A stretch of DNA of 64,000 nucleotides, from positions 1,005 to 65,004 of the forward strand of contig BJHT01000007.1 of assembly GCA_014193395.1 (NCBI GenBank), written 5' to 3'. The notes beneath the pieces are model-generated. The model did not search any database. It worked only from the letters and a program-made list of their open reading frames with translations, and was not told the origin of the DNA. Both the position numbers and the translations under genes were made by a program. The stretch is from Verrucomicrobiota bacterium. GTDB lineage: Bacteria; Verrucomicrobiota; Verrucomicrobiia; Limisphaerales; BJHT01. Numbering within the stretch: the stretch's first letter is position 1; every line of letters starts with the position of its first letter. Shown one piece after another: positions 7,948-62,745 of the stretch.

Positions 7948-7998
7948 AAAAGCTCCAAGGCTAAAGCTCAAAGCTCAAGGGAAGCACCAAGGAACAAG
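7948..7998. repeat. Repeat family D (AAAGCTCAAAGCTCAAGG type), half copy
   Basis: AAAGCTCCAAGGCTAAAGCTCAAAGCTCAAGGGAAGCACCAAGGAACAAGG. No clear partner arm nearby. Confidence 0.7.
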
Positions 7999-8295
7999 GT
8001 GATCAAAGAGCGGTTTGGTGGTGGAGCAGCTCGCAACTGCACTCGCGGCCGGAGTGCGGCCGTCCCCGGCCGCGGCGGCGTTCGCACGCACCAGGGAGCA
8101 GGACGTTTGCCTGCGATTCTTTCCGTTTCACCCGGCGGCACCCGGGAGACCGGATCGCTCCGCAGAAACCTGTGGCCTGCGGCATCGCAGGCGGGTGCCG
8201 GAGCCAATTCCGCCGACATATTCGACATGCACGCCGCTGCACGGAATCCGGGATTCACGGATTGCGATCACCCGGCGTTGGGCTAACGCTCGCAC

Positions 8296-16784: not shown

Positions 16785-16870
16785 GGCGGCGGCATCATTT
16801 GGGAAGAGCGCCGGGGGCGGGAAGCTTCATTTTCAAAGCGGGCGGCAAGCCGAGAGGGGAACGATGGAAA

Positions 16871-17060
16871 GGTCAAAGGATAAAGCTCAAAGCTCAAGGA
16901 AAGGACCAAGCACCAAGCACCACCGGGCACCGTCATAAAGCGAAGCCGTGTGGCCGGATCGGCGCCGCTGACCACGCTGACCGCCAGTTTTCGACTCCGC
17001 CAAATCGAGCTTGGACCTTGGCGCTTGGTGTTTCCCTTGAGCTTTGAACTTTGAGCTTCC
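16871..17060. repeat. Repeat family D, full palindromic copy
   Basis: The left arm ...ATAAAGCTCAAAGCTCAAGGAAAGGACCAAGCACCAAG pairs with the right arm CTTGGCGCTTGGTGTTTCCCTTGAGCTTTGAACTTTGAGC. Confidence 0.85.
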
Positions 17061-18164: not shown

Positions 18165-18246
18165 CCGGCCGCGACTTTGTGAGCGACGGCAGGACCACAG
18201 ACGACGCCCGGCGCACTCGAGCCGCCGCCGAACCGGCGCGAGCTGT

Positions 18247-18433
18247 GGAGTGCGGGGACTTGTCGCCGCTTTCCCAAGGCGACTTGTCGCCGTCGAATGT
18301 GGGGGAGTGTCATTTTGTAACGGGGGCGTTCACCGCTCGCGCCAGCGGTGGCGTGCGCTCCTGTTCGAACGCGCACGGAACGGAGACGGCGACAAGTCGC
18401 CCGCGCAAAAGCGGTGACAAGTCACCGCACTCC
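18247..18433. repeat. Nested-palindrome repeat family B (~186 bp), copy 1
   Basis: The outer arms are GGAGTGCGGGGACTTGTCGCCGCTTT / AAAGCGGTGACAAGTCACCGCACTCC. The inner arms are GGCGACTTGTCGCCGTC / GACGGCGACAAGTCGCC. The core is GCTCGCGCCAGCGGTGGCGTGCGC. Confidence 0.9.
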
Positions 18434-18453
18434 AAAGCCAGAGGAGCCTTCCT

Positions 18454-19458
18454 ATGATTTCCAAACCCATCGCCGTCGTCACCGGAGGCGCCGGCTTCAT
18501 CGGCAGCCACATGGTGGACCTGCTCCTCGCCGAGGGCCACCGCGTCCACGTCATCGACAGCCTCGTCGGCGGCCGGCTCGAGAATCTCCACCACCACAAG
18601 GGCAATCCCGACCTCGTCGTCGAGGTCCGCGACATCCGCGACCTCGCCGCGAACGACCCGCTCTTCGCCGGCGCGAGCCATGTCATTCATTTCGGCGGCA
18701 TCGGCGACATCGTGCCGTCCATCGAGCATCCGGTGGATTATCTGAGCACGAATGTAATGGGCACCGTGAAGGTGCTCGAGTGCGCCCGGCACGCGCAGAT
18801 CAAGAAATTCGTCTATGCCGCCTCGTCCTCCTGTTACGGCCTCGCCGCCGTGCCCACGCGCGAGGACGCGCCCATCGCGTGCGAGCATCCCTACGCGTTG
18901 AGCAAATACCTGGGGGAAGAGGCCGTGCTGCACTGGAGCCGCGCCTACAAGCTCCCGGTCAACTGCATCCGCATTTTCAACGCCTACGGCACGCGCTCGA
19001 AAACCTCCGGCGCTTACGGCGCGGTCTTCGGCGTTTTCCTCGCGCAAAAACTCGCGGGCAAGCCCTTCACCGTCGTCGGCGACGGCACGCAGCGGCGCGA
19101 TTTTCTCTACGTGACCGACGTGGCGCGTGCGTTCTATCTCGCGGCGATGACGGACAAGGTGAACCACATTTGGAACCTCGGTGCCGGCAATCCGCAGCCC
19201 GTCAACCGCCTCGTCGAACTGCTCGGCGGACCCGTCATCCACCTCCCCAAACGCCCCGGCGAACCCGATTGCACCTGGGCCGACATCACAAAAATAACCC
19301 GCGACCTCGGCTGGAAACAGCTCGTCCCCTTCGAGCAGGGCGTGGCCAATCTGCTCGCGAACATCGAGTACTGGCGGCAGGCCCCCGTGTGGGACCAGGC
19401 CTCCATCGCGCAGGCGACGAAGACGTGGTTCGCGTTTTTGGGCGGTGAGAAAAAGTGA
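18454..19458 (+). CDS. NAD-dependent nucleotide-sugar epimerase/dehydratase (extended SDR, UDP-hexose 4-epimerase / UXS-like)
   Basis: VTGGAGFIGSH, YALSK catalytic pair and GDGTQRRDFLYV motif. Confidence 0.82.
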   Translation: MISKPIAVVTGGAGFIGSHMVDLLLAEGHRVHVIDSLVGGRLENLHHHKGNPDLVVEVRDIRDLAANDPLFAGASHVIHFGGIGDIVPSIEHPVDYLSTNVMGTVKVLECARHAQIKKFVYAASSSCYGLAAVPTREDAPIACEHPYALSKYLGEEAVLHWSRAYKLPVNCIRIFNAYGTRSKTSGAYGAVFGVFLAQKLAGKPFTVVGDGTQRRDFLYVTDVARAFYLAAMTDKVNHIWNLGAGNPQPVNRLVELLGGPVIHLPKRPGEPDCTWADITKITRDLGWKQLVPFEQGVANLLANIEYWRQAPVWDQASIAQATKTWFAFLGGEKK

Positions 19459-19473: not shown

Positions 19474-19626
19474 GGCGCAGTTCAGTTTCTTGCGACGATC
19501 GCTGCGAGTTGACTCAGTCCCGCAGGGACGACCGAAAATAGTCCAGCACTGAAGTGCTGGGCTATTTTCTTTCGCCCGCTGGGCTGGCACGGCGAACCAG
19601 TCCGAGTGGAAGAAACTGAACTGCCC
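19474..19626. repeat. Palindromic element J
   Basis: GGCGCAGTTCAGTTTCTTGCG ... GGAAGAAACTGAACTGCCCC, with a central hairpin GAAAATAGTCCAGCACtgaaGTGCTGGGCTATTTTC. A third copy of the terminal 20-mer lies at 20581..20602. Confidence 0.85.
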
Positions 19627-40969: not shown

Positions 40970-41779
40970 ATGAATCGCCCGCTCCACTGCTCGCTCGTTT
41001 TTGCATGGATGCTGGCCTTCTGGTCTCAGGCCGCCGAGACCAAGCCGGTCTCAACCCCAACCCCGGCGGGCATGGCCACCGTGCCCGCCGGGATTTACCG
41101 CCCGCTTTTCCGCAGTGATCGCGATGCCAAAGAGGTCGCCGTGAAATCCTTCCACCTCGATGTCACGCCCGTCACCAACGCCGATTTTCTCGAATTCGTC
41201 CGCGCCCATCCCCGCTGGCAGCGCTCGCAGGTCAAACGCATCTTCGCCGACGAATCCTATCTCACCCACTGGGCCGGCGACCTTGATCTCGGCCCGAATG
41301 CCGCGCTCCTCGCGCGCCAACCTGTGACGCAGATTTCGTGGTTCGCGGCCAAAGCCTACGCCGCGTGGAAAGGCAAACGCCTCCCCACCACCGAGGAATG
41401 GGAACTCGCCGCCGCCGCCGGCTTCACGCAAATCGACGGCACCAAAGACCCTGAATTCCAGCGCGCCGTGAACCGCTGGTACTCGACCCCCACGCCCGCC
41501 ACGCTCCCCGCGGTCGCCACCGGCCGCACCAACTGCTTCGGCCTCCACGACCTCCACGGCCTCATCTGGGAATGGACCAGCGACTTCAACTCCACCCTCG
41601 TCACCGGCGACGCCCGCGGCGACAGCGGCCTCGAACGCCAGCTCTTCTGCGGCAATGGATCGTTCGGCGCGACCGACCGCGCCAACTACACGGCCTTCAT
41701 GCGCTTCGGTTTCCGCAGCAGCCTCAAGGCCGGGTACACGGTTCACAACCTCGGGTTTCGGTGCGCGAAGGACCTATGA
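40970..41779 (+). CDS. nirV: Formylglycine-generating-enzyme (FGE-sulfatase/SUMF1) fold protein, NirV-type nirK accessory protein
   Basis: 269 aa with a signal peptide. It has RLPTTEEWELAA, HGLIWEWTSD and GFRCA motifs, and lies directly downstream of nirK as in known nirK-nirV pairs. Confidence 0.8.
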   Translation: MNRPLHCSLVFAWMLAFWSQAAETKPVSTPTPAGMATVPAGIYRPLFRSDRDAKEVAVKSFHLDVTPVTNADFLEFVRAHPRWQRSQVKRIFADESYLTHWAGDLDLGPNAALLARQPVTQISWFAAKAYAAWKGKRLPTTEEWELAAAAGFTQIDGTKDPEFQRAVNRWYSTPTPATLPAVATGRTNCFGLHDLHGLIWEWTSDFNSTLVTGDARGDSGLERQLFCGNGSFGATDRANYTAFMRFGFRSSLKAGYTVHNLGFRCAKDL

Positions 41780-42146
41780 AAAGCTCAAAGCTCAAAGCTC
41801 AAAGCTCAAGGGAAGCACCAGCGTTCAAGCTCCAGCGGGGAGCGGATCGCGCCACCATTGTTCTCGAGCCACCAGCTCCATCGCCCCGTGGTTCCACGCC
41901 TTTTCGTCACTCCCATTTCCCCAGCCTTGAGAAAAAAATTGGAACCACGAAAGGCACGAAAGAAAAATTCTCGGACAAAATCCACCCGCCCACCCGGCGA
42001 GCAGAGATTCCGGTTGGCTCCCAACATCGTCTTCACCCTTTGTTTTCGAGGCTTTCGTGTCTTTCGTGGTTCACCTCCTCAGCCGCAGCCAAGTGCAGTT
42101 TCCTCGCCCTCTTCCTTTGTGCTTGGAGCTTTGCCCTTGGAGCTTC
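41779..42146. repeat. Repeat family D composite copy enclosing a second nested palindrome (41941..42072)
   Basis: The left arm is (AAAGCTC)x4 AAGGGAAGCACCAG and the right arm is GTGCTTGGAGCTTTGCCCTTGGAGCTTC. The inner palindrome is GGAACCACGAAAGGCACGAAAG / CTTTCGTGTCTTTCGTGGTTC. Confidence 0.8.
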
Positions 42147-45591: not shown

Positions 45592-45651
45592 GCGAAAAAA
45601 AGGTGATGCCCCCGAATCAGGCCGAGCGGCAGCGAATGGCGGGCGGCCTTT

Positions 45652-45837
45652 GGAGTGCGGTGACTTGTCACCGCTTTCCCGAGGCGACTTGTCGCCGTCA
45701 AACTGCGGGACGCGTTGGTGGGGAGAGGGGCGCTCACGGCTCGCGCCAGCGCCAGCGCGCCCGCCGGTTCGGATGCGCGCCGAACTGCGACGGCGACAAG
45801 TCGCCTGCGCAAAAGCGGTGACAAGTCACCGCACTCC
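45652..45837. repeat. Repeat family B, copy 2
   Basis: Same architecture and arms as 18247..18433, located between alr and tsaB. Confidence 0.9.
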
Positions 45838-45961
45838 AAACCGCGGCGGGGCACGGCGGTGGACAGGCCGCCAAAACACAGGATCCTGGCGGCGAGACGC
45901 CGCCAGAGCTCGCAGGCGGGGACGCCTGCGGTACCGGGGAGCGGTCGGGACGCGCGCGTAG

Positions 45962-46682: not shown

Positions 46683-46711
46683 GAAAGACGCGGCCGAAGT
46701 GTGGCGGATTT

Positions 46712-46897
46712 GGAGTGCGGTGACTTGTCACCGCTTTACCGAGGCGACTTGTCGCCGTCGGGTTGCGGGAGGCGTGGGTGAGCAATGGGGCGTTCCCGGC
46801 TCGCGCCAGCGGTGGCGTGCGCGCGGGTTCGGACGCGCGCCGAACTTCGACGGCGACAAGTCGCCTGCGCGAAAGCGGTGACAAGTCACCGCACTCC
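46712..46897. repeat. Repeat family B, copy 3
   Basis: Same architecture, located between tsaB and tsaE and abutting family C copy 2. Confidence 0.9.
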
Positions 46898-46922
46898 AAA
46901 CCGCCGCGGCGCGCAGCGCGAT

Positions 46923-47069
46923 GGGGAGCGCACGCGGCCCGCGTGCCGGTTTGGGCGGCCCGCCCAAACCGTCGTTCCCCGGTCTGCCTTCCCTCCGGTG
47001 GGGAAAAGTTAGTGGGACGAGGTTTTCGGCGGGCCGCCGAAAACGGCACGCCAGCGGCGTGCGCTCCCC
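46923..47069. repeat. Repeat family C, copy 2
   Basis: Near-identical to 2463..2609. Confidence 0.9.
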
Positions 47070-47110
47070 GGGGCTTCGGGCTGCGCCCGGGGCGGCTGCG
47101 GCGCATCGCT

Positions 47111-47560: not shown

Positions 47561-48518
47561 GCGCTTGGAGTTCGTGAACGCCGTGCTCGGTTTTGATCTT
47601 CAGGCCGGAGCCGGCGGTGATGCGCCCGATGCAGGTCAGCGGCACGTCGGGGAATTGCGCGCGCCACGCGTCGAGCAGCGGCACGGCGTCGCGGCTGGCG
47701 ACGGTGAGGAGCAGTTCAAAATCTTCGCCGTCGGTCAGCGCGGCGAGCAGGCGGGATTTGCGCGGGCCGGGGGGCAGTGGCAGTGCGCTCGAGGGCTGGC
47801 CTTCCGCAGCGGCGCTGAGGTCGCGGGTGCGTTCCTTGGCGGCGCGGCTGATGGGAATGGATTTGCCGAGCAACACCGCGCCGACGCCGCTGGCATTCAG
47901 GATATGGCGCAGATCGCCCGCGAGGCCGTCGCTGACATCCATCATCGCGTGAATCGGAAAATGCGCCGCTAGCCAGCGGGCCTCGGCGAGGCGCGGCTCG
48001 AAGTCGAGATGGCGTCCCGCGAGCGAGCCGCCGAGCTGGCCGGTGACGAAGATCGCGTCGCCGACTTTCGCACCGGAGCGAAGCGTGGCTTTTCCGCGCG
48101 GCGCCCAGCCGACGAGCGCGATCGACAGCAGCATCCGCTCGGGATTGGTCGTGGTCTCACCGCCGCTGATGGCGACATCGTGGCGGCGGGCGAGCGCGCT
48201 CAGGCCGCGGTAAATGCCCTCGAGGACTTCGACTTGGAAATCGCGCGGCAAGGCGATGGTGACGAGCGCGCACGTCGGCGTGCCGGCCATTGCGGCGATG
48301 TCGCTTAGGCAGCGAGCGAGGGCTTTGTGGCCGATTTTTTCCGGCGGCGTGTCGGCGGTGAAGTGGATGCCCTCGACGACGGCGTCAGTTTTGAACAGGA
48401 GCACGCGGTCTTTCATTCCGAGATCCAGCACGGCGCAATCGTCGCCGGGGCCGACGAGGACGGAGTCGTTCGTCGGGAGTGCGCGGGTGAGATGGGCGAT
48501 GAGTTCGAACTCGTTCAT
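47538..48518 (-). CDS. thiL: Thiamine-monophosphate kinase
   Basis: Part of track ORF 47538..49427 from MNEFELIAHL. It has the AIR-synthase-like pattern (GDDCAVL, KTDAVVEGIHF, LSDIAAMAG, GGETT). It overlaps tsaE by 23 nt. Confidence 0.88.
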   Translation of the reverse strand: MNEFELIAHLTRALPTNDSVLVGPGDDCAVLDLGMKDRVLLFKTDAVVEGIHFTADTPPEKIGHKALARCLSDIAAMAGTPTCALVTIALPRDFQVEVLEGIYRGLSALARRHDVAISGGETTTNPERMLLSIALVGWAPRGKATLRSGAKVGDAIFVTGQLGGSLAGRHLDFEPRLAEARWLAAHFPIHAMMDVSDGLAGDLRHILNASGVGAVLLGKSIPISRAAKERTRDLSAAAEGQPSSALPLPPGPRKSRLLAALTDGEDFELLLTVASRDAVPLLDAWRAQFPDVPLTCIGRITAGSGLKIKTEHGVHELQAHGYVHFA

Positions 48519-49237
48519 GACGGCCAGAAGATGGGCAGGCGGATGCGCTGCTCGAGAATGAGCCAGAGAAAGTTGGTCAGGTTGAACGTGGCGTGGGTGA
48601 GGATGGGCGTGAGCAGATTGCCGGTGCGTTCGTAGAGCCAGGTGAGCAACAGCGCGAGCAGGACGAGCGGGAGGAAGGTCATGGTGTTCGCGTGACTCAG
48701 CGCGAAGAGAATGGCGGTGAGCCACAGGGCGGTCTGCGGGAAGCCGAGCCGCTTGATCGCCGGATAGAGGATGCCGCGGAACAGGATTTCCTCGACCACC
48801 GGCGCGCACACGATGGCGATGAGGCCGAACACGGCACGCTCGGAACTCGAGACGGAGGTTTGCAGCGCCTGCACGGTGGCCTGCTGGACCGGCTCGGTTT
48901 TGAAGCTGGTCATCACCTGTGCGGACACGCCGGCGAGCATCCAGGAAAGCGGGAGAATGCCCGCGGTCGCGAGCAGCGCCGGGACGACGACGCGGCGGGG
49001 ACTCCAATCGCGCCAGCCAAAGGCCTCGTGCCAGGTCAGGCCGTGTTCGCGCACAAAGACGCCGGTGATGATCAGCACGCCGAGATGGAAGGTGAGCGTG
49101 TTGACGACCAGCGTCGGCAGGCGCGCGTGGGGATCGGGCAGCAGCCGGAGCGCCAGCGAGCCGATCATCATGAAGGCAACAACGCCCAGCAGGAAGCGCA
49201 TCAGGGCTTCGAGTTTCCAGGGCTTTTCCGACAACAT
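48515..49237 (-). CDS. CPBP-family intramembrane glutamic endopeptidase (CAAX protease-like)
   Basis: Multi-TM protein with EEILFRG, FALSH and HATFN motifs. ATGA overlap with thiL. Confidence 0.82.
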   Translation of the reverse strand: MLSEKPWKLEALMRFLLGVVAFMMIGSLALRLLPDPHARLPTLVVNTLTFHLGVLIITGVFVREHGLTWHEAFGWRDWSPRRVVVPALLATAGILPLSWMLAGVSAQVMTSFKTEPVQQATVQALQTSVSSSERAVFGLIAIVCAPVVEEILFRGILYPAIKRLGFPQTALWLTAILFALSHANTMTFLPLVLLALLLTWLYERTGNLLTPILTHATFNLTNFLWLILEQRIRLPIFWPS

Positions 49238-49848: not shown

Positions 49849-51234
49849 TCACACATCCGTCTGTATCTCGATCATCAATGTGCCGATCTCCAGCTTGTTC
49901 CCTCCGCGCAGGGTGTGCGTGGATTTCGTGAGCTTGTTTTCCATTTCCACCTTGCCGTCGCGGAAGGTGACGATGGCGGTCACGGGCGGAAAGCCCTTCT
50001 CTTTTGGCAAATACAGGTGCGCTTCGGGCGAGCTGCCGAGGATCACCGGCTCCGCGCCTAGCGAGATGACCGTGCGTTCGTTCGGATCCCAATGCACTAC
50101 GAGCGCCGCCTCGCGCGCGAGCTTCTCGACGAGCGCGACCATCAAGCCGATGGCTCCGCCGAGGATGAGCGCGCCGAGCAATCGTCCGCCGATCTCGCCG
50201 GCGCCTTGGATCGCCACGAGAAACGCCACCGCGCCGAGCAGTCCGCCGATCATTCCGCCGAGGCTGGCCCGGCCGCGCGGCAGGTTGGGAATGAAACCGC
50301 CGAGGCCCGCGCCGAGCAGCGCGCCCAGCAGCATCCAGCCGAAGACCTGGCCGAGTTTCACAAGCCACAGCGCGTCGGGAAATTTCTCCGCGAGCGTCGG
50401 TGCGACGAGCGCGAACAGGTATTGGCTGGCCGAGCCGGCGAGGAGTCCCGCGAGCACGCCGCCGCCCGCGAGCTTGAGCGCTTCCTTGCGATTCCACGGC
50501 GGACGGCGCAGGAGCAGGTTTTGTCCGGCCACAATGAGCAGCGCGAGGAACGTGGCCAGCAGCGCGGTCCACAGACCGATGGCGAGCGTGATTTTCAGCG
50601 GGACTTTGGCGTAGATCGCGTTGGTTTTCCGCTCGGGCGTGGCGGAAGGCGACGGGACCTCGAAGGTGTGAACCGTCTCCGCCGGCTCGCCGGGGATGGC
50701 GGTGCCCTTGAATTCCTGCACGCGGCCGTTCGCCTTCAACCCGACGGTGAAGGGCGTCGGTCCCACTTTTTCGTGGCGCTCGTAATGATGCACCTGGATG
50801 ACGTAGCGGCCGGGCGGCGCGCCGCCCGCGGGCCAGTAGATGTTCTCGACGGGCTTGTCGGAGTATGGCTCGCGGGCGTTCATGTCCACGTCCAGTTCGC
50901 CACCGGATTTGACCCGCTTCTGGTTGAAATAAATGTGCTCCTTGAGCGGGGTGAGGCAGTGCAGGTCGATGTCGTTGCGATTGTCCCACATCAGCGAAAT
51001 CTGCACGTCGCCGGACTTGGCGGATTCGCGTTCGAGGCGCTTGGTCAGTTCGTTGTTGAAGACCAACACGGGCGCGGCCCCGCCACCCCCAGCGCGGGTT
51101 TCGGCCGACTTCGACGACGGTTTGACCAAAAACAGCAGCGGCTCGCCCAACGCCCAGCCGAGGCCGCAACCGAGCGCGCCGAGCAAGGCGAAGAGAACGG
51201 GCTTCGGGAGCAGATGAACGAGTTTGGTGCTCAT
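49849..51234 (-). CDS. Polytopic membrane protein: TM1, periplasmic DUF2135(YfaP)-like beta-sandwich, 5 Gly-rich TM helices, cytoplasmic FHA-like C-terminal domain (tentative)
   Basis: 461 aa. The ectodomain motif string is ISLMWDNRNDIDLHCLTP..GGELDVDMN..PVENIYW..GRYVIQVHHY. The hydrophobic Gly-rich segments span roughly residues 215-385. The C-terminal ~75 aa (VISLGAEPVILGSS...GNKLEIGTLMIEI) have an FHA-like beta pattern but lack canonical pThr-binding residues. Confidence 0.6.
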   Translation of the reverse strand: MSTKLVHLLPKPVLFALLGALGCGLGWALGEPLLFLVKPSSKSAETRAGGGGAAPVLVFNNELTKRLERESAKSGDVQISLMWDNRNDIDLHCLTPLKEHIYFNQKRVKSGGELDVDMNAREPYSDKPVENIYWPAGGAPPGRYVIQVHHYERHEKVGPTPFTVGLKANGRVQEFKGTAIPGEPAETVHTFEVPSPSATPERKTNAIYAKVPLKITLAIGLWTALLATFLALLIVAGQNLLLRRPPWNRKEALKLAGGGVLAGLLAGSASQYLFALVAPTLAEKFPDALWLVKLGQVFGWMLLGALLGAGLGGFIPNLPRGRASLGGMIGGLLGAVAFLVAIQGAGEIGGRLLGALILGGAIGLMVALVEKLAREAALVVHWDPNERTVISLGAEPVILGSSPEAHLYLPKEKGFPPVTAIVTFRDGKVEMENKLTKSTHTLRGGNKLEIGTLMIEIQTDV

Positions 51235-51261
51235 GGTGCGTTGCGGTGATTAGTCGAGGGC

Positions 51262-51473
51262 AAGTTCAAAGAATAAAGCTCAAAGCTCAAGGGAAGAACC
51301 AAGGAACAAGCGGTTCCAAGGGGACGCGGCCGACGTGTTTGAAAACGGACTGTGCTCCGGGGTGCGGCAGAAACCGGCGGGCAGGTTGATTGCAGAACCG
51401 CCGTCCTCACCGCGCCAGCCGTGGTGCTTGGCGCTTGGTGTTTCCATTGAGCTTTGGGCTTTGGGCTTTGAGC
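51262..51473. repeat. Repeat family D, full palindromic copy in the divergent promoter region of the membrane-protein/vWA locus
   Basis: AAGTTCAAAGAATAAAGCTCAAAGCTCAAGGGAAGAACCAAGGAAC ... GGTGCTTGGCGCTTGGTGTTTCCATTGAGCTTTGGGCTTTGGGCTTTGAGC. Confidence 0.85.
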
Positions 51474-51603
51474 TGCATCCCAACCTCCGCGGCACGCACG
51501 CCGGCAATCCCCCCATCCGCAAAATTTTCTTTGCTCCACCGGAGGCTTCGACAACTCTCCGCGCCGACAGCACAACCACCAACCACTCCAAAAAGGATTC
51601 GCC

Positions 51604-52248
51604 ATGTCAGTGAGAAGATTGCCGGTTTACATTTTGGCCGATTGCTCCGGGTCCATGTCGGGCAACCCCATCGAGTCCGTGAAATCGGGCATCCGCGCCC
51701 TGCACAGCGAGTTGATGGGCGACCCCTCCGCCGTCGAGTGCGCCTACCTTTCGGTCATCACCTTCGACGCCAACGCGCAGCAGCTCGTGCCGCTCACCGA
51801 GCTGTCGCTGTTCGCGCCGCCGGACTTGAAGGCCGCGGGCACGACGGCGTTTGGCGCGGCGCTCAAGCTCCTCATGGAGTGCATCGAGCGCGAAGTGCAG
51901 AAGACCACCGCCGAGCAAAAGGGCGACTGGAAGCCGCTCGTCTTCATCTTCACTGACGGCTCGCCGACCGACCGCTGGGACACCTTCGCCGATGAACTCA
52001 AGGCCAAGCGCCCCGGCAACATCATCGCCGTCGCGTGCGGTGACGCGGCCGATCCCGAGGTGCTCAAGCGCGTCACCGGCACCGTGCTCATCATGAAGGA
52101 AATGTCGCCCGACGCCTTCAAGCAGTTCTTCAAATGGGTCAGCGCCTCGATCAAGCAGACCAGCGCGAAGATCGGTGCCGCGGCCGCCGCACCCACCGAG
52201 GGCATCGCGCTTCCGCCGCCGCCGCCGCAGATCGTCATCCATCCGTGA
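51604..52248 (+). CDS. TerY-type von Willebrand factor A (vWA) domain protein
   Basis: 214 aa. MIDAS residues are present (ILADCSGSMSG ... AGTTAFG ... FTDGSPTD). Size and sequence style match TerY-like vWA proteins. Confidence 0.8.
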   Translation: MSVRRLPVYILADCSGSMSGNPIESVKSGIRALHSELMGDPSAVECAYLSVITFDANAQQLVPLTELSLFAPPDLKAAGTTAFGAALKLLMECIEREVQKTTAEQKGDWKPLVFIFTDGSPTDRWDTFADELKAKRPGNIIAVACGDAADPEVLKRVTGTVLIMKEMSPDAFKQFFKWVSASIKQTSAKIGAAAAAPTEGIALPPPPPQIVIHP

Positions 52249-52340
52249 AGCATCGCTCGGTGCTGCGGCGCGATTTGGCAGGCGTCCACGCGGCGGGGCG
52301 CGGCGTGTCAGCAGGGCGCGGGGTTGCCTGACCTTCGAGC

Positions 52341-54008
52341 ATGTTCGACAAATTCTTCAATCGTCCGCCCGGCGGCAAAGCGATCAAAAAAGCCGCCGCC
52401 AACCCCGCTGCAGACGCGCCGAAAACCGGAGCCGCCCCGGCGGCGGCGACGCCGCCAGCTCCCGACGTCGCGAAGCTTCCGACGGCTCCGGCACCCGCTC
52501 CCAGCCCGCCCGCCGCTGTTTCCTCCGCGCCAGCCAAGGTTGAGGAAAAGCCCGATTCCAAAGGGCCGAACGAGGCCATCCCCGACATCAAGACGTTGAA
52601 GATCGACCGGAGTCTGCCGCGGGAAAAACCAAAGATGCCGGACGGTTCCGCAGCGCCCGAGGCTGCTCGCGAGGCCGCGAAATCACCCGCCGATTCCGCG
52701 CTGAAAACGCCTTCGCCCAACACACTGACGCCGCTCAACCGGCCCGCAGAATCCGCCACGCCCGCCGCCGCGCCATCGCGCCCGGCCTCGGTACCGCAGG
52801 CGTCCCCGCCTGCGAGTTCGGGCGGCGTCTCGCCGCCAGAACCCATTTCCGCCGCGCGTCCGCCCTCTCCGCTCGCGTCCGAGAAAACCGATTCCACATC
52901 AGCCCAAGACCCCGTAAAACCCAGCCCGCTGCCCGCTCCCACCGCGCCTGTCGCCTTGCTCACTGCCCCGAAAAAAGCAGACGCACCGGCATCCACGCTG
53001 CCGCCGGTGCCCGCCCCCAAACCCACCGAGCCGCCCGCGCCCAAGGCCGCGCAATTTCAAAATCTCCCCGCCACCGACGCTTGGTGCCCGCCCGCCATCG
53101 CCGAGCATTATCCCGAATTGCGTGCGCACATTTACGAGGACAACGCCGCCACCGAACGCGTGCTGCCCGGCGGCTGGCGCATCGTCGGTGCGACCAAGCG
53201 CGGACGTCAGCACGCGCACAAGGCCACGCATCGCGAGGACGCGCTGGCGTTCAACGTCGGTGCGCAGTTCACTATCCTCTGCGTGTCCGACGGCGCGGGG
53301 AGCTGCCCGCTCAGCCGCCTCGGTTCGCACGTCGCGTCACACACCGTCGCTGCGCGACTGATGGAGCAATTGCCGAAGCTGGAGAAGGCCGTCACGGACG
53401 ACGCGGACAAATTGAAAACCGAATTGAGCGCGCAGCTCACCGCCGCGCTCGTGGCCGCGTGCCAGGCGCTGGTGGACATGGCGGCGAAAACCAAGACCAG
53501 CGCGAAAGATTACCGCTGCACGCTGCTCACGCTGCTGCATTGGCGCGGCGAGAAACACGAACTGCTGATCGCCAATCAGATCGGCGACGGCGCGATCCTC
53601 GTGCTGAACCAGGACAAATCCACGCGCCGCATCGGCGAGGCGGACTCGGGGCAATTCTCCGGCGAGGTGAGCTGCTTCGTCCCCGACGACAATGCGCGCG
53701 ACAAGGCGAAGAAGATTGATTTCATCGCGCCCGCCGACGCGGTCGAGTGCGTGCTGCTCTGCACCGACGGCCTCGAGGACCCGTTCTTTCCCATCGCGAA
53801 AAAGGCCGGGGATTTGTTCCGCCAGCTCTACGCCGGCGTGAGCGAGCCGCTGAAGGATTTCAAGGCGCAGCCGCCGCAGCCGCCGATCCTGCCGCAGGAA
53901 AGCGCGGCGGGCGCGCTCGGGCAGTGGCTCGAGTTCGAGAAGCGCGGCGAGAACGACGACCGCACCGTGCTCCTGTTGCACCGCCGCCCGCCGACGGTGA
54001 CGTTCTGA
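52341..54008 (+). CDS. PP2C-family Ser/Thr phosphatase with a ~245-aa Pro/Ala-rich N-terminal low-complexity region
   Basis: 555 aa. The C-terminal ~300 aa carry PP2C-like metal-binding motifs (HREDA, CVSDGAGS, LCTDGLEDP). The N-terminus is PAxP-rich. Confidence 0.72.
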   Translation: MFDKFFNRPPGGKAIKKAAANPAADAPKTGAAPAAATPPAPDVAKLPTAPAPAPSPPAAVSSAPAKVEEKPDSKGPNEAIPDIKTLKIDRSLPREKPKMPDGSAAPEAAREAAKSPADSALKTPSPNTLTPLNRPAESATPAAAPSRPASVPQASPPASSGGVSPPEPISAARPPSPLASEKTDSTSAQDPVKPSPLPAPTAPVALLTAPKKADAPASTLPPVPAPKPTEPPAPKAAQFQNLPATDAWCPPAIAEHYPELRAHIYEDNAATERVLPGGWRIVGATKRGRQHAHKATHREDALAFNVGAQFTILCVSDGAGSCPLSRLGSHVASHTVAARLMEQLPKLEKAVTDDADKLKTELSAQLTAALVAACQALVDMAAKTKTSAKDYRCTLLTLLHWRGEKHELLIANQIGDGAILVLNQDKSTRRIGEADSGQFSGEVSCFVPDDNARDKAKKIDFIAPADAVECVLLCTDGLEDPFFPIAKKAGDLFRQLYAGVSEPLKDFKAQPPQPPILPQESAAGALGQWLEFEKRGENDDRTVLLLHRRPPTVTF

Positions 54009-54036
54009 GCGATGAAGGCGATGGAGAATCCGATGC

Positions 54037-54118
54037 GTAGCCGCCGACGTGAGGAGGCGGATTCGGGCGTGTGCCAGCGCTCGTGCCAGCCAATCCGCCT
54101 CCTCACGTCGGCGGCTAC
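54037..54118. repeat. Family A-like mini-palindrome between the PP2C and kinase genes
   Basis: GTAGCCGCCGACGTGAGGAGGCGGATT ... AATCCGCCTCCTCACGTCGGCGGCTAC (27-nt arms, 28-nt spacer). Confidence 0.8.
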
Positions 54119-54130
54119 AAGGATTTGCCC

Positions 54131-55579
54131 ATGAGCCACGGCCCGTTCATCAAGGCGCGGATGCACGGCGGGGGCGAGATCGTCTTCCACAGCGAGCCGC
54201 TCGCGTCGGGCGGCGAGAAGGTCGTGTTCAAATCGCAGGAGGGAAAACACGTCGTCGGCTTTTTCTTCGGCCAGCTCGATGACCGCCCCGAGCGTCTGCG
54301 CCGGCTCGAGAAAATCATCGGCTCCTACAATCCCACCACCGGCGGCGCGCAGGCCGAGCACTGGCTGAAACATTTCTGCTGGCCCGTCGGCGTCGTGGAC
54401 GGCACGCAAAACAAGCTGCCCGCCGAATGGCTGCGCCGGAACAATCTCCACGCGCCCGTGCTCGGCGTGGTCGCGCCGGTCTATCGGGCGAACTTTTTCT
54501 TCCGCGACCGCACTGGCGAGCTGCGCGAGAAAAAAGGCAAGTGGTTCACCGGCGTGAAGGCGCGCAAGCTCCTGCCCGATTCCGAGAAGGGCGATTTTCT
54601 CCGCTATTTGCAGGTCTGTTCCGTGATGGCCAGCGCGGTGCGGCGGCTGCATTACGCGGGCCTCGCGCACGCCGACCTCTCGCACAACAACGTGCTCATC
54701 GACCCCAAGGGCGGCGACGCGTGCGTGATCGACATCGACTCGCTCGTCGTGCCCGGCCTCGCGCCGCCGACCGTGCTGGGCACGCCCGGCTACATCGCGC
54801 CCGAAGTCGTCGCGGGTAAAAAACTGCCGTCCATCGAGACCGACCAACACGCGCTCGCCGTGCTCCTCTACGAAACGCTGCTCCAGCGCCATCCCCTCCA
54901 CGGTCCAAAAATCCATACGACGCGCTCCGCCGAAGAAGACGATCTGTTGATGATGGGCGCGCGCGCCCTCTACATCGAGCATCCCACGGACTTTTCGAAT
55001 CATCCCAAGACGCCGCCCGCCATTTCCGTGCGCCGGCTCGGGCCGTATCTGGAAAAACTTTTTCTCAAAACGTTCGCGGAGGGCCTGCACCAGCCCGCAC
55101 GCCGCGCCACGGCGACCGAGTGGGAAAAGGCTTTGTCGAAAACCTTCGACCTCCTGCACCCGTCGCCTGCGGGCGGCGAATGGTTCGTGCTCGACCGCAA
55201 CCTGCCGATGATCTGCCCGCACAGCGGCCAGCGCCTCACGCAGCCGGTGCCGTATGTGGATTTTTATCGCGAGACGAGCACCGGGGCTTACTCCGATGAA
55301 AACCACTCGCTGACCCTGTGGAACGGCCTGCATCTCTACAAGTGGCACACCCTCGCCAACGTCTCGCCCCACGACGCCGAGCGCACGTCACAGGGCTACT
55401 TCACCTTCCACAACCGGCGCTGGTATCTCGTGAACCAGAGCGGTGCCGACATGTGGCTGCCCGACGCCCAGCGCTTCGTCCCGCACGGCGCGGCCGAGCC
55501 GATCACGCAGGGATTGAAGGTGCTGTTCTCCCTCGAAGAAGGCCGCCGGCTGGGCATCTTCAACTTCATGAAACCGTAG
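54131..55579 (+). CDS. Ser/Thr protein kinase-like protein with a C-terminal ~135-aa uncharacterised beta-rich domain
   Basis: Track ORF 54071..55579. Start moved to MSHGPF because the first 20 codons lie in a palindromic repeat. It has the catalytic loop HADLSHNNVLID, VIDIDS (DFG equivalent) and GTPGYIAPE. Confidence 0.75.
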   Translation: MSHGPFIKARMHGGGEIVFHSEPLASGGEKVVFKSQEGKHVVGFFFGQLDDRPERLRRLEKIIGSYNPTTGGAQAEHWLKHFCWPVGVVDGTQNKLPAEWLRRNNLHAPVLGVVAPVYRANFFFRDRTGELREKKGKWFTGVKARKLLPDSEKGDFLRYLQVCSVMASAVRRLHYAGLAHADLSHNNVLIDPKGGDACVIDIDSLVVPGLAPPTVLGTPGYIAPEVVAGKKLPSIETDQHALAVLLYETLLQRHPLHGPKIHTTRSAEEDDLLMMGARALYIEHPTDFSNHPKTPPAISVRRLGPYLEKLFLKTFAEGLHQPARRATATEWEKALSKTFDLLHPSPAGGEWFVLDRNLPMICPHSGQRLTQPVPYVDFYRETSTGAYSDENHSLTLWNGLHLYKWHTLANVSPHDAERTSQGYFTFHNRRWYLVNQSGADMWLPDAQRFVPHGAAEPITQGLKVLFSLEEGRRLGIFNFMKP

Positions 55580-55864
55580 TCCGCCGCAGCCCACCCGAAG
55601 GCGCGGCCGGAGCGATCGCACCGATTCCAGGCGAGGTCCACGGGCGGCGGCTGAGGTTGCACACTCCAACGTGTTCCGGGGCAGCGCCGGGCTGGCTCCC
55701 GCGCCGTTTCATTCTCGGAGGGCAGTGTCGGCCAAGCACCCGCGATGGATAGAAAGGGTTGCCGTTGCCAACCGAATGGAGCGCCGGGGGCCGACAAATT
55801 AAGGCGTGTGTTTGACAAGCAATGGCGAGCGGGGCGGGCGGGCTGTGGTTACAAAAGTACGCAA

Positions 55865-56800
55865 ATGCCAGCAGCAACTATCAACCACCACCCCCTGCCG
55901 GAGTCCGGCTCGGTCCCGGCCGCCGCGAGGGGCGGGGCCGCGCTCGCGGGCGCCGCCACGGTGGCGGGACCGTTGAGCGTTCCGTTGGATTTCGTCGGCA
56001 ACGGTCTGGTCAGTCTCTACATGTCGTCGCGCGCGGGCGGCCTGGCGATTGATGTGAATCTGAATCCCGACGGGCGGTGCAATTTCAACTGCGCCTATTG
56101 TGCCGTGGATCGCTCGCAGTTGTCGCGCGAGCCGGTGGTGGACGTGGACCGGCTCGCTCGGGAATTGCGGGAGTTGCTCGCCTTGGTGCATTCCGACCGG
56201 ATTCAGCAGCAGGCCGGTTTTCAAAATCTGCCGCCGGAGTTGCGCCGGCTGCGGATGGTGGCGTTGTCGGGGGATGGCGAGCCGACGTTGTCGCCGGTGT
56301 TCTGCGAGGCGGTCGAGACGGTGGTGCATGTGCGCGCGCTCGGGGGCTGGCCGTTCTTCAAACTGGTGCTCGTGACCAACGCCTCGGCGCTGGACCAGCC
56401 GCGCGTCCAGCAGGGCCTCCAGCATTTCACGCGGCAGGATGAAATCTGGGCCAAGCTCGACGCCGGCACGCAGGCGTTTTTCGAACGCTTCAATCGCGCG
56501 TCCGACACGCTCGAACATGTGCTGCGCAACATCCTGCTCGTGGCGAAGGAGCGGCCGGTGGTCATCCAATCGCTCTTCGCCCGGATGCGCGGGCAGAACC
56601 CGCCCGCCTCCGAGGTGCTGGAATACATCGCCCGCCTCCAGGAGTTGCAGGCGGCGGGCGCGCAGATTTCATCCGTCCAGATCTATTCGGCGAACCAGCC
56701 GACGCCGAATGCGGAATGCACGCATCTCTCGCTGCCCGCGCTCTCCGGTATCGCGCGACAGGTCCGCACGGCGACGGGTCTGCGGGTGACGGTGCATTGA
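55865..56800 (+). CDS. Radical SAM protein (subfamily not recognised)
   Basis: Track ORF 55745..56800. It has the CxxxCxxC cluster motif CNFNCAYC and the SAM-binding-like LSGDGEPTL. The start at 55865 (MPAATINHH) is uncertain. Confidence 0.7.
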   Translation: MPAATINHHPLPESGSVPAAARGGAALAGAATVAGPLSVPLDFVGNGLVSLYMSSRAGGLAIDVNLNPDGRCNFNCAYCAVDRSQLSREPVVDVDRLARELRELLALVHSDRIQQQAGFQNLPPELRRLRMVALSGDGEPTLSPVFCEAVETVVHVRALGGWPFFKLVLVTNASALDQPRVQQGLQHFTRQDEIWAKLDAGTQAFFERFNRASDTLEHVLRNILLVAKERPVVIQSLFARMRGQNPPASEVLEYIARLQELQAAGAQISSVQIYSANQPTPNAECTHLSLPALSGIARQVRTATGLRVTVH

Positions 56801-62550: not shown

Positions 62551-62745
62551 AAGAGCTCAAAGTTCAAAGCTCAAAGCTCAAAGAAAATTCCAAGCGCCAA
62601 GCTCCAGCGGAAGCACACGGTTCCCGTCTCCAATTCAGCATCGGCACCTTGTCCAAGGGATCTCCAGACACACGGCGACTACGGCCAATTGATCCTTGAT
62701 CCTTGGCCATTCCCTTGAGCTTTGCGCTTTATCCTTGGAGCTTCC
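62551..62745. repeat. Repeat family D, full palindromic copy
   Basis: AAGAGCTCAAAGTTCAAAGCTCAAAGCTCAAAG ... CCCTTGAGCTTTGCGCTTTATCCTTGGAGCTTCC. Confidence 0.85.

Follow-up and report, generated by a model that had tools for sequence, protein, structure and literature searches.

The question raised by this locus is which neighbors of a bacterial phosphorylation cassette belong to it. The locus lies at positions 49849-56800 of a 64,000-nucleotide stretch of contig BJHT01000007.1 (assembly GCA_014193395.1, a Verrucomicrobiota bacterium), referred to below as the window. An earlier reading of the DNA, the original prediction, described five genes here: a polytopic membrane protein, which we call MEM, divergent from a vWA protein, a PP2C phosphatase and a Ser/Thr kinase, with a radical SAM (rSAM) gene downstream. 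It recognized the middle three as a TerY-P triad and raised the idea that all five form one system. We favor a narrower reading, to which we give about even credence: the locus would be a chromosomal, ter-independent TerY-P switch with MEM as its clade-specific membrane partner, likely acting in membrane or envelope stress. Our open reading frame (ORF) check confirmed all five genes together with the motifs quoted for them, and the four genes on which this reading turns are as follows.

49849-51234, minus strand: MEM, a membrane protein encoded by an ORF of 461 amino acids (aa).
51604-52248, plus strand: a TerY-type vWA protein (Pfam VWA) with the motifs DCSGSMSG and TDGSPTD.
52341-54008, plus strand: the PP2C ORF (Pfam PP2C_2) with the motifs DGAGS and TDGLED.
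54071-55579, plus strand, with a probable Met start at 54131: the kinase, with the motifs HADLSHNN, DIDS and GTPGYIAPE.

TerY-P has been summarized as TerY with a PP2C and a kinase, and as a proposed metal-sensing phosphorylation switch tied to DNA-processing systems (PMC4978471, PMC11090510). Judged by homology to ter-cluster proteins and by conserved gene order, the window trio is a genuine TerY-P triad, as had been predicted. Pfam profiles placed its members in the VWA (E = 2e-11), PP2C_2 (3e-31) and Pkinase (4e-13) families, so that the kinase and phosphatase did not fall into the unrelated families for which the original prediction had allowed. The order vWA(s)-PP2C-kinase was found in essentially all of the ~39 related metagenome loci and in three further loci, which establishes the triad as a fixed cassette.

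Each protein carries the features expected of its family. With TerY of IncHI-type plasmids, a protein found in 2,334 plasmid records, the vWA protein shares 52-56% identity. Its metal ion-dependent adhesion site (MIDAS; D-x-S-G-S, T, D) is intact, and conservation of the residues of this site reaches 95% or more across 39 family members. We therefore class it as TerY-type and, from its sequence, as a stand-alone cytoplasmic protein. The PP2C catalytic domain occupies approximately aa 287-555 (~53200-54008), is 29% identical over 305 aa to the 577-aa PP2C of the pC127_NDM1 ter cluster, and retains DGAGS/GDG/TDG motifs that are invariant or nearly so in the family. The preceding ~250 codons of the ORF are Pro/Ala-rich, with GC contents at the three codon positions of 0.68/0.64/0.73 as against 0.67/0.45/0.89 in the catalytic part, and they include a 48-73-nt dispersed repeat (52769-52839) with other copies at 45886-45958 (intergenic, opposite strand) and at 18684-18730 of another Verrucomicrobial locus, L001 (L and P numbers are our own for loci and proteins). 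Because of this weak codon periodicity and the repeat, the true start of the PP2C is uncertain, and its N-terminal ~250 aa may be a noncoding spacer or a fast-evolving linker.

Kinase homologues are 476-485 aa long, and the start is therefore probably the Met at 54131 rather than the GTG at 54071. The protein is 38% identical to the kinase of the pC127_NDM1 ter cluster over 482 aa, its full length, including the C-terminal region, and its catalytic Lys, Asp and Asn, like the DxD/APE residues, vary little or not at all across the family. By these sequence criteria it is a Hanks-type Ser/Thr kinase of the TerY-P family. An AlphaFold model (pLDDT 92.3) showed a protein-kinase fold and, C-terminal to it, beta-rich elements; matches in a fold search with this model were dominated by the kinase domain. 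A zinc ribbon C-terminal to the kinase domain is a trait of TerY-P triads, and here the window departs from the type. Three of the four Cys are lost, one being left throughout the window clade and its Gemmatimonadota sister clade, and the ribbon strands are still modeled. The classical and cyanobacterial kinase clades keep all four.

The source names of the closest homologues indicate Verrucomicrobiota of a Limisphaerales/Pedosphaera-like kind. A neighbor-joining tree of the kinases follows broad taxonomy, and the genomic context of the triad differs from lineage to lineage. In the sister clade, the triads of the Gemmatimonadota-like loci L082, L083, L091 and L093-L095 occupy a fixed site in the photosynthesis gene cluster, after the puf reaction-center/cytochrome genes and before puhC, with a single-pass membrane protein specific to this clade coming after them.

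We then turned to MEM, which the original prediction had described as polytopic, with a DUF2135-type sandwich and an FHA-like tail. An AlphaFold model (pLDDT 89.8, pTM 0.81), Foldseek and family matches to DUF2135 all bear out this architecture. The protein consists of an N-terminal transmembrane (TM) helix, a DUF2135-type beta-sandwich (~aa 58-200; aa 77-193 in the model), a bundle of long glycine-rich TM helices (aa 213-372) and a C-terminal beta domain with an FHA fold (aa 375-461). MEM itself scores below the DUF2135 (PF09906) gathering cut-off (17.3 bits versus 22; E = 0.005), and the profile is matched by 33 of 69 homologues, at best with E = 3.7e-5; cyanobacterial homologues carry the source name "YfaP family". 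Family alignments showed six invariant residues in the sandwich (D88, D90, D115, D117, N119 and E130) as well as invariant glycine-zipper motifs in the TM helices.

The sandwich also bears some likeness to TerD. Its motif LxW..DLDL...IFF resembles TerD at a statistically weak level, with a similar resemblance to the PPC-like "DLDLYLYDP". Structural comparison (Foldseek to 2qz7/2qng, E = 0.03-0.05 and TMt ~0.4) and profile alignment (hhalign, probability 9.6% over 43 columns) were weak as well, and a sequence search of the sandwich against the Protein Data Bank (PDB) gave no TerD match.

For the C-terminal domain, Foldseek returned the FHA domains of Rv0020c, GarA, Ki67 and YscD (probability 1.0, TMt 0.65-0.72). 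By sequence, there was no PF00498 match in MEM or its family, and a profile search of the PDB found no FHA domain. Upon mapping the phosphothreonine-binding site by inspection, we found that the family consensus reads G-S-S and P-P-V-(T/A)-A where Gly-Arg and Ser-x-x-His are expected. The tail thus has an FHA fold but is probably not a canonical phosphothreonine reader; the earlier suggestion that it might read phosphothreonine is left unsupported because the conserved Arg, Ser and His are absent. As for topology, charge counts over short loops across the family favor an N-terminus and an FHA fold that both lie inside and a sandwich that lies outside, the orientation that we tentatively predict for MEM.

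To ask how often MEM and a triad occur together, we scanned MEM loci with one genome per species, which gave 80 loci, and combined the neighborhoods with the kinase tree. In the window's kinase clade, MEM stands beside the triad in 8 of 12 loci; these comprise the window, L025, L089, L168, L169 and L170, which are in the clade, plus L002 and L022, whose kinases are truncated. The association takes three arrangements. MEM is divergent and upstream of the triad in the window and L002; upstream with a short paralogue in between in L022, L025 and L089; and downstream within one long operon in L168-L170. MEM and the triad meet again in cyanobacteria. Chance would be expected to bring them within 10 kb of each other in a ~5 Mb genome in only ~0.4% of cases per genome. 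The original prediction had called for such a linkage check, and for MEM the answer is divided: the association recurs in one triad clade and in cyanobacteria, while most MEM genes are free of triads. Since most MEM homologues have no adjoining triad, the link is facultative, and MEM is apparently a facultative, clade-specific membrane partner.

Several observations weigh against a working partnership in this organism. Among 26 full-length Verrucomicrobial MEM genes, 23 have no triad within 10 kb (the three that do are L002, L022 and L025), and lone MEM genes sit among varied housekeeping genes such as those for PfkB, an M20 peptidase and an FAA hydrolase. The MEM of L001, 92% identical in DNA to that of the window, has entirely other surroundings. 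No MEM lies near the same-clade triads of L081, L087, L088 and L090, and neither the classical nor the Gemmatimonadota triad clades have one at all. MEM in the window is divergent from the triad and so not co-transcribed with it. Within the proteins themselves, the FHA tail lacks the canonical binding residues, the window kinase's C-terminal domain has no sequence similarity to the MEM tail, and in the AlphaFold model one continuous helix spans residues 320-372, an arrangement in which the sandwich and the FHA fold would share a side of the membrane.

The lone MEM genes, the displaced MEM of L001, the triads that lack MEM and the divergent orientation would suit a rival reading, in which the triad is self-contained, MEM acts independently, and their adjacency is a relic of ancestral synteny with no biochemical coupling in this organism. 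The absence from the window of two further genes of the extended loci described below, MEM-short and PrsW, also agrees with it. We consider this reading rather unlikely, as it does not readily accommodate adjacency in two-thirds of the clade's loci, in three arrangements and again in cyanobacteria, or the repeated fusion of MEM modules with vWA domains. In L001 (10318-18633), the gene after MEM encodes a protein of 2,771 aa that contains PPC, TSP3 and InlB B-repeat domains.

The fusions take several forms. Sandwiches 50-55% identical to that of MEM are inserted in TerY-like vWA proteins that have no TM segments (L044, L057 and L067), and these genes adjoin vWA, PP2C or kinase genes. Conversely, a vWA domain interrupts the sandwich in the MEM homologues P0054, L016 and L021, and P0054, P0361, P0374, P0398 and P0400 have one within the TM-FHA module or fused to it. 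Four of ten long proteins with the TM-FHA module have an N-terminal vWA domain, and in Armatimonadota, MEM-like genes adjoin a vWA gene in 15 loci. Both modules of MEM are widely reused in many architectures; an exhaustive search gave 326 clusters at E<=1e-30 and 2,838 at E<=1e-10. At the far end of this range, P0450 and P0461 (~2,400-2,500 aa) carry ~12 tandem copies of the DUF2135-type sandwich. Single copies occur in MG-II archaea and Planctomycetota beside MotA/ExbB-like and FtsX-like genes.

Larger relatives of the locus place the triad among additional membrane proteins. In L168-L170, the triad is accompanied by MEM and by one or two extra vWA proteins (one with TerY_C). These loci also encode a GYF_2/DUF805 membrane protein, an intramembrane protease of the PrsW family and MEM-short, a MEM paralogue of ~272 aa that has no sandwich. 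The short paralogue that separates MEM from the triad in L022, L025 and L089 is likewise MEM-short. In Microcystis sp. BLCC-F210 (L027, 3100-13720), one operon contains the kinase, vWA, PP2C, a DUF1036 protein, an FHA-PrsW protein, MEM and additional membrane proteins. A C-terminal domain of ~95 aa is common to four products of this operon, the kinase, PrsW, MEM and a protein like MEM-short (E = 1e-14 to 1e-40), which suggests homotypic docking or a common ligand; a C-terminal domain shared by kinase and MEM was found only in Microcystis. The window has no MEM-short, PrsW or other extras of the extended loci, and for this reason looks like a reduced version of them. We tentatively raise a broader possibility, which we regard as plausible but somewhat doubtful: the TerY-P switch could be the cytoplasmic control module of an undescribed membrane apparatus built from DUF2135-TM-FHA, PrsW, GYF_2 and TerY_C-vWA proteins, present in Verrucomicrobiota and relatives and in cyanobacteria, with the window as its minimal form.

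A third reading starts from defense. A TerY-P-like module, described as a kinase-OB fold fusion, reportedly protects against T7-like phages (Gao 2020, as cited in PMC7699616 and PMC11090510), and restriction-type systems are among the companions of TerY-P triads (PMC7699616, PMC11090510, PMC4978471). The window locus could by this account be an anti-phage abortive-infection system, in which the kinase and phosphatase sense infection and the glycine-zipper TM bundle of MEM is a membrane-permeabilizing effector. The invariance of the zipper motifs and the lineage-to-lineage change in triad context are consistent with such a role, as are weak matches of the kinase to the defense kinases PD-T4-6 and Mad6 in PADLOC. 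PADLOC returned no match, however, for the window vWA, PP2C or MEM. Its TerY model, PDLC02224, misses the window vWA and also classical TerY, and it therefore gives no support for membership in the validated TerY-P defense family. Moreover, the lone MEM is conserved at 55-65% identity across many Verrucomicrobia, unlike a toxic effector, and sister-clade triads are stable within the Gemmatimonadota photosynthesis gene cluster. A search for a defense island, which the original prediction had proposed, turned up housekeeping genes on both flanks (alr, tsaB, tsaE, thiL and CPBP on one side; clpC-like, mcsB, mcsA and ilvE on the other) and no such island around the locus. We thus regard the anti-phage reading as improbable.

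The last gene of the original five lies downstream of the kinase.

55745-56800, plus strand, with a probable start at 55865: the rSAM ORF (Pfam Radical_SAM, E = 1e-7) with the motif CNFNCAYC.

Homologues of this protein are ~305 aa long, and the start is therefore probably 55865, which leaves a gap of 285 bp; a gap had been noted, at 286 bp. The original prediction cast the rSAM enzyme as an effector or modifier in a five-gene system, and its proximity on the same strand, 285 bp beyond the kinase, is all that speaks for this. No relative of the gene was found in ~45 other triad loci or in the 80 MEM loci. The gene belongs to a large, COG0731-like family, labeled by JGI as wyosine-synthetase-like rSAM, with more than 6,000 matches and ~57% identity across Verrucomicrobia, and two homologues lie in other contexts, one with adk and patatin genes and one after the nuo operon. 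Unlinked to triads and placed in unrelated contexts elsewhere, the rSAM gene is an unrelated neighbor rather than part of the triad system, and we give the five-gene system almost no credence.

Returning to the TerY-P switch with MEM as its membrane partner, we propose the following mechanism. MEM would act as a receptor-like scaffold whose outward-facing DUF2135-type sandwich, with its invariant acidic cluster, probably binds a metal. The TM bundle would couple the sandwich to the cytoplasmic FHA-fold domain, which we envisage as a protein-docking module that does no canonical phosphothreonine reading and that may recruit the kinase and TerY to the membrane. There, the kinase and PP2C would set the phosphorylation state of TerY, of MEM or of both, and the TerY MIDAS would then bind or release a partner. 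The most likely output would be a response to stress on the membrane or envelope, not a function of the defense-island kind. The window would be a reduced form of a larger ancestral operon comprising the triad, extra vWA proteins, MEM, MEM-short, PrsW and a GYF_2 membrane protein.

The DNA between MEM and the triad was also inspected for regulatory elements.

51235-51603, no strand: the divergent intergenic region between MEM and vWA, with one copy of a purine-rich motif at 51255-51311.

A scan of this region found no sigma-70-like promoter. Promoter and terminator scans were uninformative, the sole strong terminator being that of clpC, and an Rfam scan gave no match within the locus. The purine-rich motif is ~50 nt long (AAGCTCAAAGGATAAAGCTCAAAGCTCAAGGGAAG.ACCAAGGA.CAAG), has no Rfam match and is present in five or more intergenic regions across the window: the copy at 51255-51311, which sits 20 nt from the MEM start codon, and those at 7950-8006, 16862-16918 and 41778-41820 are on the plus strand, and one at 62689-62743 is on the minus strand. 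Other intergenic repeats of 150-200 bp form two dispersed, partly palindromic families that flank tsaB and tsaE. Their coordinates are 18243-18436, 45642-45849 and 46703-46909 for one and 2463-2612 and 46923-47072 for the other (also 841-994 of L001), so that one of the two families is common to the window and another Verrucomicrobial metagenome-assembled genome. Matches to the Rfam small RNA Acido-Lenti-1 at 19516-19585 on both strands (45.5 and 40 bits) are consistent with a palindromic element. Among the flanking genes, the CPBP protease (48515-49237) was considered as an analogue of PrsW and rejected. It is nowhere conserved beside MEM or a triad, and we therefore regard it as an unrelated neighbor.

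What the window itself provides is narrower than the system first imagined: a four-gene locus of a known kind, not a five-gene one, in which the triad is known and the MEM partner is apparently undescribed. An association of the triad with DUF2135-TM-FHA-fold proteins or with PrsW was not found in the searchable literature, which does not cover the founding 2012 description of TerY-P. TerY-P triads are widespread, occurring in ter clusters, in CoCoNuT/McrBC systems and in a validated anti-phage system. A recurrent membrane partner with a docking-type FHA fold, joined in larger relatives by PrsW, supplies testable candidates for the input or output of the switch. If the triad is indeed the control module of a membrane apparatus, MEM would be the first candidate for a physical input or output of TerY-P signaling, for example through regulated intramembrane proteolysis or membrane gating. 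That triads also occur outside defense and tellurite contexts, as they do within the photosynthesis gene cluster of Gemmatimonadota, speaks for a broader role in signaling.

Among known systems, the classical triad of ter clusters on IncHI-type plasmids, such as pC127_NDM1, was reportedly defined by Anantharaman, Iyer and Aravind in 2012. It has the same three families in the same order as the window, with MIDAS and catalytic motifs kept and a kinase catalytic loop of H-x-D-L-S-x-x-N in both. Unlike the classical cluster, the window has no TerZABCDE/W or biosynthetic ter genes, one TerY rather than three, a kinase zinc ribbon without three of its four Cys, and MEM in place of the TerD/TerC partners. 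The absence of ter genes nearby had been part of the original prediction, and it held up when we searched the 64-kb window with a TerD profile and with TerA, TerB, TerC and TerW in phmmer, neither of which found a homologue.

The triad also resembles those of defense and DNA-processing systems. Anti-phage TerY-P (Gao et al. 2020) has the same vWA, PP2C and Ser/Thr kinase, the kinase with a C-terminal beta-rich domain; that kinase is described as an OB-fold fusion (PMC11090510). The window locus has neither a match to the PADLOC TerY model nor a defense-island context. Type II/III-A CoCoNuT (PMC11090510) and an island of Helicobacter pylori (PMC4978471) contain the same triad with a C-terminal zinc ribbon on the kinase. 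In contrast to these, the window has no McrBC, helicase, HEPN or type VII secretion system-like genes, its zinc ribbon is degenerate, and its associates are membrane proteins.

Two secretion systems provide likenesses, one for the logic of the locus and one for the FHA fold of MEM. The type VI secretion system (T6SS) pathway PpkA/PppA/Fha1 of the Pseudomonas H1-T6SS follows a similar logic, with a kinase, a PP2C, a vWA domain and an FHA protein around a membrane apparatus, and we draw it as an analogy only. PpkA carries its vWA as a periplasmic part of the same kinase protein, and the phosphothreonine reader Fha1 is soluble and canonical. The window vWA, by comparison, is a separate cytoplasmic protein, as predicted from its sequence, and the flanks contain no T6SS genes. 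The cytoplasmic FHA domains of YscD, PscD and EscD, proteins of the inner-membrane ring in type III secretion, likewise lack canonical phosphothreonine-binding residues. They place an FHA fold on a membrane protein, and 4a0e, 4d9v and 6uid are among the best fold matches to the MEM tail; the remainder of MEM is unrelated to them, and the window locus has no secretion system.

Lastly, the original prediction held that the triad had no experimentally defined function. This is outdated, given the reported protection against T7-like phages noted above and the biochemical study of a vWA-STK-FHA-PP2C operon in Deinococcus (bioRxiv 10.64898/2026.01.23.701218). In Deinococcus radiodurans, DRA0331-DRA0334 encode a vWA protein, a kinase, a PP2C and an FHA protein, for which a push-pull model with FHA docking modules has been put forward (bioRxiv 10.64898/2026.01.23.701218). 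The Deinococcus FHA domains are canonical and soluble, one being fused to the PP2C, whereas the FHA fold of the window is noncanonical and forms the tail of a polytopic membrane protein. The likeness between the two is drawn at the level of gene content.

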